This document shows, piece after piece, positions 18,619 through 19,359 of a stretch of DNA of 64,000 nt (the first letter of the stretch is position 1; the number at the start of each line of letters is the position of its first letter). The position numbers and the translations under genes are program-made. This stretch comes from Clostridia bacterium (lineage in GTDB: Bacteria > Bacillota > Clostridia > Christensenellales > CAG-314), in contig JAQVWG010000002.1 of the NCBI GenBank assembly GCA_028698585.1, positions 150,250 through 214,249 of the forward strand. The letters are read 5' to 3'. The notes under the pieces are model-generated. The model worked only from the letters and a program-made list of their open reading frames with translations, searched no databases and had not been told where the DNA came from.

Positions 18619-19359
18619 ATGAAGATTAAAGTCGGATTTGTAGGCAATTTTTACGTTGCAGAGCAATTATTGACTAGTAATGAGGTTGAGGTAGTATTCA
18701 ATGTTAACGATGGCGCACTCGCATACCAACTATTTGATCAGAGGGGTGCTGATTGCGTAGTAACCGAATTGATTGTGCCACAGTTAGATGGTTTTGGACT
18801 GATAGAGAAACTCAAACAGCATTCGTCAACACCGCGCATTATTGTGCTGACAGAACTCAAGAGTGAAGTCTTCGTACTCAAAACATATGAAATGGGTATA
18901 GCAGATTATCTAGTCAAGCCCTACGACGCTCAAGCTCTTTTACATGTTATTAATTCTCCTGCAAGCAGAGTTATCAGTAAACCCACAGCTAGGAGCATTG
19001 ACAACTCTCGTTCACTAGACGAGAAGCTGAGCAACATATTCATATCTGTGGGTATACCTGCGCACATCAAGGGCTATCAGTTCTTGCGAGAGGGTATCAA
19101 GCTGGCAGTTGATAATCCACCTATCATTAACAGCATTACTAAGGCGCTTTACCCAACCATTGCTAAACGCTACGATACTACAGCCTCTAAGGTTGAGCGA
19201 GCGATAAGGCATGCAATTGAGGTGGCGTGGAACAGAGGCAAGATAGACAACATCAACTCCATCTTCGGGATTAAGGTGTACAGTAATCATGAACGTCCTA
19301 CTAACGGTGAGTTCATTGCCCTACTTGCAGACAAAATGCTTCTGGAATGTGCCTACTGA
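18619..19359 (+). CDS. spo0A: Sporulation master regulator Spo0A with an atypical aspartate-less receiver domain
   Basis: C-terminal Spo0A signature: [60 protein letters not shown]. The N-terminal REC fold has G9-N10 and E50 at the acidic-pocket and acceptor positions. Confidence 0.85.
   Translation: [246 protein letters not shown]

Follow-up and report, generated by a model that had tools for sequence, protein, structure and literature searches.

A 64,000-nucleotide stretch of contig JAQVWG010000002.1 from a Clostridia bacterium of the Christensenellales, the whole of which is referred to here as the window, encodes a Spo0A protein (spo0A, 18619-19359, plus strand) that lacks both the phospho-acceptor aspartate and the acidic Mg2+-binding pocket of its receiver domain. 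Judged from the sequences of its relatives, loss of the aspartate pocket of Spo0A characterizes a deep clade of gut Christensenellales that are uncultured and have small genomes, comprising the CAG-314 family and relatives. Canonical Spo0A is inactive until it is phosphorylated by a phosphorelay or by orphan kinases. In the clade studied here the phosphorylation pocket has been lost yet the protein is strongly conserved, and it is therefore expected to be controlled in some other way. The reading we favour, and consider probable though well short of certain, is that of a phosphorylation-independent pseudo-receiver Spo0A, the lineage's own, the output of which would be set by its expression or by partners.

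Identity of the protein and residues of the receiver active site

The open reading frame (ORF) of 246 residues corresponds to NCBI protein MDD3831431.1, which GenBank/PGAP names 'sporulation transcription factor Spo0A [Clostridia bacterium]'. An earlier note, made by reading the DNA without database searches, had recognized it as Spo0A, and the profile searches agree. Pfam Response_reg (PF00072) matches residues 14-111 with 63 bits, and Spo0A_C (PF08769), the DNA-binding effector domain that holds the recognition helix, matches residues 139-239 (19033-19335, plus strand) with 136 bits over model positions 3-103 of 104. The full-length protein scores 215.3 bits with NCBIfam TIGR02875 (spore_0_A), above the 200-bit equivalog cut-off; the margin is narrow because the receiver is divergent. 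With phmmer the effector domain finds the C-domain of Bacillus subtilis Spo0A (1lq1) at E = 2e-38. Except for the catalytic residues, the window protein conforms to the sequence definition of Spo0A.

The phospho-acceptor position is occupied by Glu50 (codon GAA, 18766-18768, plus strand). The segment containing Glu50 was paired by phmmer with LLLDIIMPHLDG of Geobacillus stearothermophilus Spo0A (1dz3/1qmp), with LVLDIIMPHLDG of B. subtilis Spo0A (9phz) and with the equivalent stretch of RegX3 (2oqr). Since the alignments to these solved receivers agree, Glu50 is the residue at the acceptor position; no Asp was found there, and the replacement of Asp by Glu reported in the earlier note is borne out by the alignments and by the codon itself. 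Thr78 and Lys100 pair with the switch Thr and the active-site Lys in the phmmer alignments, in agreement with the statement of the same note that both are kept. Thr78 is followed by an acidic residue specific to the clade (Thr78-Glu79-Leu80-Lys81, 18850-18861, plus strand), at the position termed T+1, and alignment and codons place the aromatic switch residue and the active-site Lys in Tyr97...Lys100-Pro101 (18907-18921, plus strand).

In MAFFT alignments with canonical relatives, Gly9-Asn10 (GGC AAT, 18643-18648, plus strand) stands opposite the Mg2+-binding Asp-Asp (DD) pair, and a 5-residue gap comes directly after. The acidic pocket is lost, as had been claimed, but not by two point substitutions alone as had been supposed; a 5-residue deletion accompanies the loss. 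The deletion shortens the beta1-alpha1 loop and helix alpha1, because of which the Mg2+ pocket has no acidic residue, and residues 1-14 contain neither Asp nor Glu. HMMER leaves residues 1-14 unaligned, and the equivalence with the DD pair was assigned by MAFFT; the residue equivalences were rechecked against PDB sequences. The AF2 model likewise positions Gly9-Asn10 in the beta1-alpha1 loop, the site of the canonical DD pair.

A receiver that is recognized by PF00072, has non-canonical residues at both positions of the DD pair (DD1 and DD2) and at the acceptor position, and retains Thr and Lys is a pseudo-receiver (Maule 2015; Bourret 2025). With Glu50 in place of the acceptor Asp the window protein also falls into the subset of aspartate-less receivers (ALRs), and the catalytic quintet that characterizes canonical two-component regulators (DD, D, T, K) is incomplete.

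Distribution of the trait in the lineage

The identical protein is present in NCBI, JGI, ENA and Logan assemblies, and there are more than 100 homologues with the same features, which excludes the sequencing error that the earlier note had argued against. The 120 best database homologues form two groups: a large one in which the deletion is present and the DD pair absent, and one with a canonical DD(N/S) pair and Asp. A scan with one genome per species yielded 80 loci, among which 51 non-redundant loci make up the deletion clade and the 29 canonical (non-deletion) loci served as the comparison set for the gene neighbourhood. The residue composition of the clade was derived from 134 distinct sequences pooled over all sources. 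The altered pocket is a property of the whole lineage and not a peculiarity of the window genome.

The acceptor site in the clade is occupied by Glu (110 of 134 sequences) or Asp (24) and by no other residue. The DD1 equivalent is G, C, E, S or A and is acidic in 17 sequences; the DD2 equivalent is Q or N and is acidic in three. By contrast with these losses in the pocket, the remaining residues of the switch are kept: T or S is found at the switch position and an aromatic residue (Y/F) three residues before the active-site Lys (K-3) in all 134 sequences, and the Lys itself in 127 (95%). T+1 is Glu or Asp in 122 sequences (91%) and Ala, Gln or Ser in the canonical relatives. The 24 relatives that retain Asp are therefore pseudo-receivers but lie outside the ALR subset.

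On a neighbour-joining tree at least ten changes between Asp and Glu occurred at the acceptor site within the clade. Two sister lineages carry other residues there: Pro with the pocket GED (L018:9809-10702 and L030:1304-2140; 'Subdoligranulum sp. CAG:314' and UMGS1403), and Gln with the pocket GDD (L078:9923-10771 and L049:3444-4220). Both are without the 5-residue deletion, yet they have the SELKSE/SDLKSE (ELKSE) motif that follows beta4 in the clade. The repeated exchange of Asp and Glu, together with the Pro and Gln sisters, indicates that phosphotransfer chemistry is no longer selected.

The same counts bear on the proposal that the protein is still phosphorylated, with the Asp members acting as true receivers and the Glu members using another residue or modification, or with a donor that does without the metal pocket. 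Asp in 24 of the sequences, Glu at the DD1 equivalent in 17 and the retained T and K could be accommodated by such a mechanism, and post-translational modifications of other kinds have been proposed for ALRs. But DD2, the direct metal ligand, is acidic in only three of the 134 sequences, the bulky acidic residue at T+1 would hinder access to the site, given the known role of T+1, and helix alpha1, the docking helix, is truncated and variable. In addition, the free interchange of Asp and Glu on the tree argues for the functional equivalence of the two residues. Continued phosphorylation is thus very improbable.

The metagenome-assembled genomes (MAGs) of the clade are labelled Clostridia, Christensenellaceae, Oscillospiraceae, Candidatus Limihabitans and Candidatus Fimimonas. 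In GTDB, Fimimonas corresponds to genus CAG-1435 of the Christensenellales family CAG-314, and its type genome measures 1.4 Mb (original description). NCBI taxid 2840648 places Candidatus Fimimonas in the Myxococcaceae, and some Spo0A-encoding gut MAGs are labelled 'Corallococcus sp.'; the placement of Fimimonas in the Myxococcaceae seems to be a taxonomy artefact. The neighbour-joining tree places the clade beside canonical Spo0As from MAGs labelled Christensenella. Searching 1.84 billion representatives with a profile of the receiver only gave no estimate of clade size because multi-receiver hybrid proteins filled most of the top 150.

Fold and selection

The pseudo-receiver domain spans residues 1-115 (18619-18963, plus strand). 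The AF2 model, computed from 114 sequences, has a mean predicted local distance difference test (pLDDT) score of 87, with 83-96 across the receiver domain, and predicts a complete (beta-alpha)5 receiver topology in which helix alpha1 comprises only residues 11-17. In Foldseek comparisons the receiver half matches the Spo0A receiver 1qmp with a template-modelling (TM) score of 0.85, and the effector half matches the Spo0A effector structures 1fc3/1lq1 with TM 0.86-0.91 and about 55% identity over the alignment. The ratio of nonsynonymous to synonymous substitution rates (dN/dS), determined in 41 clade pairs with sufficiently unsaturated dS, amounts to some 0.05-0.10 in the receiver and some 0.02-0.03 in the effector; as dS is high, these values are approximate. 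A full-length spo0A ORF is present in each of the 51 clade loci. The receiver fold is kept and is under purifying selection, and the DNA-binding domain has hardly changed.

Conservation within the receiver is unevenly distributed. The element of lowest entropy, and the most conserved stretch, is the beta4-alpha4 loop (ELKS); beta5, beta3, beta4 and the beta3-alpha3 loop are also conserved, and all of these elements surround the old active site. Variability is greatest in helices alpha1, alpha2 and alpha5. In complexes of receivers with phosphotransferases the phosphodonor docks mainly on helix alpha1, and a shortened, variable alpha1 agrees with the loss of such a partner.

These data decide against a decaying relic in a lineage without sporulation, and equally against a sequencing or assembly error. 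Small genomes, such as the 1.4-Mb type genome of Candidatus Fimimonas, and the lack of sporulation genes in the region read would be in keeping with a relic. A relic would not be expected to have full-length ORFs in 51 of 51 loci, strong purifying selection on both domains, invariant neighbours of the catalytic site and a conserved promoter element, nor would an artefact recur as an identical sequence in four independent data sources. Both explanations are effectively refuted.

The TetR-family neighbour and the spo0A neighbourhood

Directly downstream of spo0A in the window lies a gene for a TetR-family regulator of 196 residues with a TTG start (19611-20201, plus strand; Pfam TetR_N). A TetR-family gene is located within 1.5 kb of spo0A in 47 of the 51 deletion-clade loci as against none of the 29 canonical loci, mostly on the same strand directly downstream and in six loci divergently upstream. 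The window protein is a generic TetR_N protein with the look of an ordinary DNA-binding TetR. Its identification with RefZ was considered and rejected: NF037937 gave 33.9 bits against a cut-off of 180, with the N-terminal helix-turn-helix only, and RefZ is absent among the PDB sequence hits of the protein.

The region 19512-19579 (plus strand) ahead of tetR contains a palindrome, AAAAAAGATAATACTTTTTT (19512-19531), followed by a promoter-like site, TTGTAA-17-TAGAAT with a TG (19551-19579). In other clade loci a near-palindrome (TGAAAATTTCA-like) is found at the same place before a conserved tetR promoter. No terminator was predicted between spo0A and tetR in the window, and two weaker matches lie inside tetR; a terminator-like hairpin predicted at 20231-20258 (plus strand) is the sole candidate to end the spo0A-tetR pair. 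Although no intervening terminator is predicted, the idea of a spo0A-tetR operon is weakened by the promoter-like element that tetR has of its own.

Four clade loci have no adjacent tetR, and in the two of them with enough flank, L034 and L046, a stand-alone receiver-like ORF of 106-114 residues follows spo0A directly (L034:10886-11206 and L046:10906-11250). It is a paralogue of the Spo0A pseudo-receiver, without the DD pocket and with Asp at the acceptor site, and is a possible heterodimer partner.

Such neighbours raise the question of a regulated pseudo-receiver, switched, as in atypical regulators that heterodimerize or bind ligands, by a protein or a small molecule that binds to the face of the former active site, for which the TetR neighbour and the receiver-like protein are the candidates. 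Conservation in the receiver peaks in the beta3-alpha3, beta4-alpha4 and beta5-alpha5 loops, beyond what a passive scaffold needs, and a partner gene adjoins spo0A in nearly all loci: tetR in 47 of the 51 and the pseudo-receiver paralogue in L034 and L046. Moreover, mechanisms based on protein-protein contacts and on direct binding of ligands are recognized for pseudo-receivers. Against a partner role of TetR, the protein has the look of an ordinary DNA-binding TetR whose gene is preceded by a palindrome and a promoter of its own, and a fixed internal network would account just as well for the D/E-only acceptor site and the retained T and K. Switching at the active-site face is a possibility to be taken seriously, but it is unlikely.

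Upstream of the window spo0A are the glycogen genes glgB and glgP and an amylase-family gene. Spo0A is usually encoded in the order spoIVB-spo0A. In the window spoIVB is not next to spo0A, and no spoIVB-like gene was seen in the clade neighbourhoods examined. The conserved neighbours of spo0A in the clade are mgtE, genes for small membrane proteins and proteins of no assigned family, a metallophosphoesterase gene and the cluster mraZ-mraW-PBP-murE-mraY, where PBP stands for a penicillin-binding protein. In 19 of the 51 clade loci, those of the Fimimonas-type subclade, a collagen triple-helix repeat protein (GXX, about 390 residues; L024:4937-6118) is encoded within a few genes of spo0A. Collagen-repeat proteins form exosporium filaments in some spore-formers and also occur elsewhere. 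Farther upstream in the window, positions 5986-9082 encode an extracytoplasmic function (ECF)-type sigma factor (5986-6477), a 230-residue protein (6540-7232) for which no significant family match was obtained, and a 614-residue Beta_propel (PF09826) protein (7238-9082); these three genes may form a sigma/anti-sigma/effector cassette.

The unusual neighbourhood also invites the explanation that the window gene is an extra, neo-functionalized paralogue and that a canonical, phosphorylatable Spo0A encoded elsewhere runs sporulation. Two or three spo0A paralogues occur in some Clostridia (Galperin et al. preprint), and the window spo0A, flanked by glycogen genes and tetR, is without spoIVB synteny. 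Yet the window protein lies above the NCBIfam equivalog cut-off, the clade adjoins the canonical Christensenella-labelled Spo0As on the neighbour-joining tree, and a single spo0A copy is found in 107 of 118 Spo0A-positive genomes (Galperin et al. preprint). The scan of the 51 species-level genomes, carried out with clade-specific patterns, recovered only the deletion type and no second full-length Spo0A-type ORF at any locus. An additional paralogue is therefore improbable.

DNA binding and the upstream region of spo0A

The window protein and B. subtilis Spo0A have nearly the same recognition helix, and putative sites for it are found upstream of most clade genes. A perfect TTCGACA, the reverse complement of the 0A box TGTCGAA, is positioned at -73 to -123 (about -95) relative to the spo0A start in 37 of the 51 clade loci, with unconserved flanks, and further CGACA repeats follow at spacings of 10-11 or about 21 nucleotides (nt) in several loci. 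With C instead of T at the third position the sequence is a perfect 0A box and a poorer -35 hexamer, which argues that TTCGACA is probably a Spo0A site and not merely a promoter element. The perfect box also occurs in 10 of 27 canonical relatives and was therefore inherited. In L012 and L021, about 60-110 nt upstream of spo0A, there are seven tandem CGACA motifs, five of the six intervals being 11 nt, or one helical turn; the series begins at the TTCGACA box and looks like an array of Spo0A half-sites.

In the window the sequence TTGGACA (18470-18476, plus strand), at -149 relative to the ATG, departs from the 0A box at one position and may act as a weak site of autoregulation. As a prediction from motifs, autoregulation through 0A boxes is well supported for the clade and only weakly for the window gene with its mismatched box. 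The promoter region of the window spo0A, the 265 nt that precede the gene (18353-18617), contains seven copies of the heptamer CAATATT; the 64 kb contain 27, one of which lies before tetR (19544-19550). Among the copies upstream of spo0A is a perfect 15-bp palindrome, CAATATTCAATATTG (18416-18430). The CAATATT sites before spo0A are candidate operators.

The gap upstream of spo0A (17886-18618, 734 nt) is unusually long and AT-rich. Within it are a 38-nt direct repeat (17923-17960 and 18116-18153, 82%) and, on the minus strand, a perfect sigma-70 consensus promoter, TTGACA-18-TATAAT (18355 to 18326), which is directed away from spo0A and has a single ORF of 35 residues behind it. No Rfam family was found in this gap, and one tRNA was the only match in the whole window. 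Intergenic tandem repeats are located at 10680-10915 (74 nt x3.2), 28651-29144 (159 nt x3.1, 94% identity), 31542-31745 (101 nt x2.0, 99%) and 42978-43309 (129 nt x2.6, 98%). The 101-nt repeat unit includes a 0A box (31583). The intergenic region with the 159-nt array, in front of a P-type ATPase gene, has two more such boxes (28140 and 28188), which precede the array by about 460 nt.

Sporulation capacity of the host

The search for sporulation genes covered the 64-kb window and 3-6 kb beyond each end. In the window, where the large non-nested ORFs were scanned with Pfam, no dedicated sporulation genes were detected, nor were any found in the 3-6-kb flanks, and the scans of the window ORFs revealed no histidine kinase genes (HisKA/HATPase_c). 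In four clade loci (L084:9426-9755, minus strand, L082, L017 and L041) a SpoIIID-family gene adjoins spo0A, divergently in the three loci in which spo0A has been mapped. The assignment is based on a Pfam PF12116 hit; TIGR02844 gave 91 bits against a cut-off of 111.5. The gene hints that part of the mother-cell programme may survive in some members of the clade. The 1.4-Mb Fimimonas genome is well below the size of known spore-formers, among which 2.2 Mb is cited as small, and Spo0A-positive non-spore-formers exist (Galperin et al. preprint). Most Christensenellales MAGs were predicted to be non-sporulating in a machine-learning survey.

Comparison with known regulators

The clade protein shares with the canonical Spo0As of B. 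subtilis, G. stearothermophilus and Clostridioides difficile the two-domain structure, the near-identical recognition helix and a receiver fold that superposes on 1qmp, and in most clade members 0A boxes upstream of spo0A. It differs from them in Glu50, in the lack of the DD metal pocket, in the 5-residue deletion that shortens alpha1 and in a T+1 residue that is acidic and not small; at the level of the locus, a TetR-family gene is attached and spoIVB is not a neighbour.

In its receiver the protein resembles the Glu-bearing ALRs, represented by ChxR of Chlamydia, HP1043/HsrA of Helicobacter and plant pseudo-response regulators, in which PF00072 is recognized without the catalytic residues and Glu occupies the acceptor site; the Lys and the residues of Y-T coupling are likewise present. 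Glu is the commonest replacement of the acceptor in ALRs (26%), DD2 is lost more often than DD1 in pseudo-receivers, and ALRs are expected to act without phosphorylation, often as constitutive dimers regulated by their abundance or by partners. Unlike ChxR, HP1043 and similar proteins, which have OmpR/PhoB or other outputs and in no case Spo0A_C, the clade has mostly lost DD1 as well, and part of alpha1 is deleted. The Glu of ChxR is dispensable for activity, and a role of Glu50 can therefore not be assumed by analogy.

Orphan atypical regulators of development that act without phosphorylation, their conserved acidic residue having a structural or dimerizing role, are also known from Streptomyces, where BldM and WhiI form a heterodimer and where GlnR and RamR need the Asp for dimerization and not for phosphorylation. 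In function the clade protein would come closest to regulators of these kinds, namely ChxR, HP1043, GlnR/RamR and BldM/WhiI. The receiver paralogue beside spo0A in L034 and L046 recalls pairing between regulators. The Streptomyces proteins have another output domain and belong to another phylum. Laboratory alleles of Spo0A that are independent of phosphorylation, such as the sad67 receiver deletion and the isolated C-terminal domain, demonstrate that the effector acts without phosphorylation once inhibition by the receiver is relieved. Whereas these alleles were engineered or selected in a sporulating host, the change in the clade is natural, ancient and fixed, and the receiver remains under selection.

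A full-text literature search found no paper that describes an Asp-less Spo0A. The one hint came from S6 Table of Maule et al. (2015): with no comment, it counts 7 ALRs among 391 proteins of the architecture Response_reg~Spo0A_C. The entry is a bare Pfam 26 count with no named sequences, lineage, pocket deletion or genomic context. An Asp-less Spo0A is not mentioned in the Galperin survey of sporulation genes, and a Spo0A entry is absent from the supplements of the 2025 pseudo-receiver review (Bourret 2025). The count slightly reduces the novelty claimed in the earlier note; the spread throughout a lineage, the pocket deletion, the acidic T+1 residue and the linkage to TetR appear to be undescribed.

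Proposed control of Spo0A without phosphorylation

According to the reading we prefer, the clade Spo0A would be unable to take phosphate from a kinase or a phosphorelay by the normal chemistry. An acceptor site restricted to Glu and Asp, the retained Thr/Ser, Lys and Tyr and the acidic T+1 residue suggest a fixed carboxylate-Lys/Thr network. In such a network the carboxylate at position 50, Thr/Ser78, Lys100, Tyr97 and the T+1 residue would together hold a single conformation, probably an active-like one, and the pseudo-receiver would serve as a module for constitutive dimerization or as a scaffold. Regulation would have moved from phosphorylation to the amount of protein and to partners. Positive autoregulation via the 0A boxes upstream of spo0A would provide one route, and the clade-specific TetR-family neighbour, supplying a small-molecule input, or else the receiver paralogue, might provide a second.

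Several points weigh against this picture. That the state is 'active-like' we infer. According to reviews, exchange of D for E alone is insufficient to activate Spo0A, and Glu, although phosphomimetic in many regulators, has been shown not to be so in some pseudo-receivers. Nor is an acidic residue needed everywhere at the site, as the sister lineages with Pro and Gln demonstrate. Of what the earlier note proposed, control by something other than phosphorylation stands as the most reasonable reading, while a receiver 'locked on-like' is only a hypothesis. The link between TetR and spo0A is a genomic association only, and co-regulation of the two genes is hypothetical since tetR has its own promoter-like element. 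Upstream of the window spo0A there is no perfect 0A box but only the one-mismatch site at -149, and the 64-kb window shows no significant excess of 0A boxes, with 11 found against about 6 expected and 6 of 100 shuffles reaching 11. Finally, a second, canonical spo0A may be located elsewhere in the genome, the region read being the 64 kb and 3-6 kb at each end.

A bolder version, which we put forward tentatively and regard as doubtful, is that Spo0A in CAG-314 and its relatives is a phosphorylation-independent, self-activating factor that is gated by the TetR ligand sensor, or in one sub-lineage by the stand-alone pseudo-receiver, and that runs a minimal sporulation programme or a new regulon. 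If true, a natural two-component developmental switch would have been turned into a one-component circuit, with the linked TetR-family gene as a testable alternative input.

Spo0A is the textbook example of a decision made by graded phosphorylation, and a phosphorylatable Asp is presupposed in all models of how Bacilli and Clostridia enter sporulation. Finding spo0A in a MAG is thus not evidence of sporulation controlled by a phosphorelay, which bears on the prediction of sporulation in gut MAGs. The clade constitutes an evolutionary experiment in stabilizing a receiver without phosphorylation, by means of Glu or Asp at the acceptor site, the acidic T+1 residue and the Thr, Lys and Tyr, and offers a large family of pseudo-receivers that can be compared directly with a canonical relative that is very well understood.

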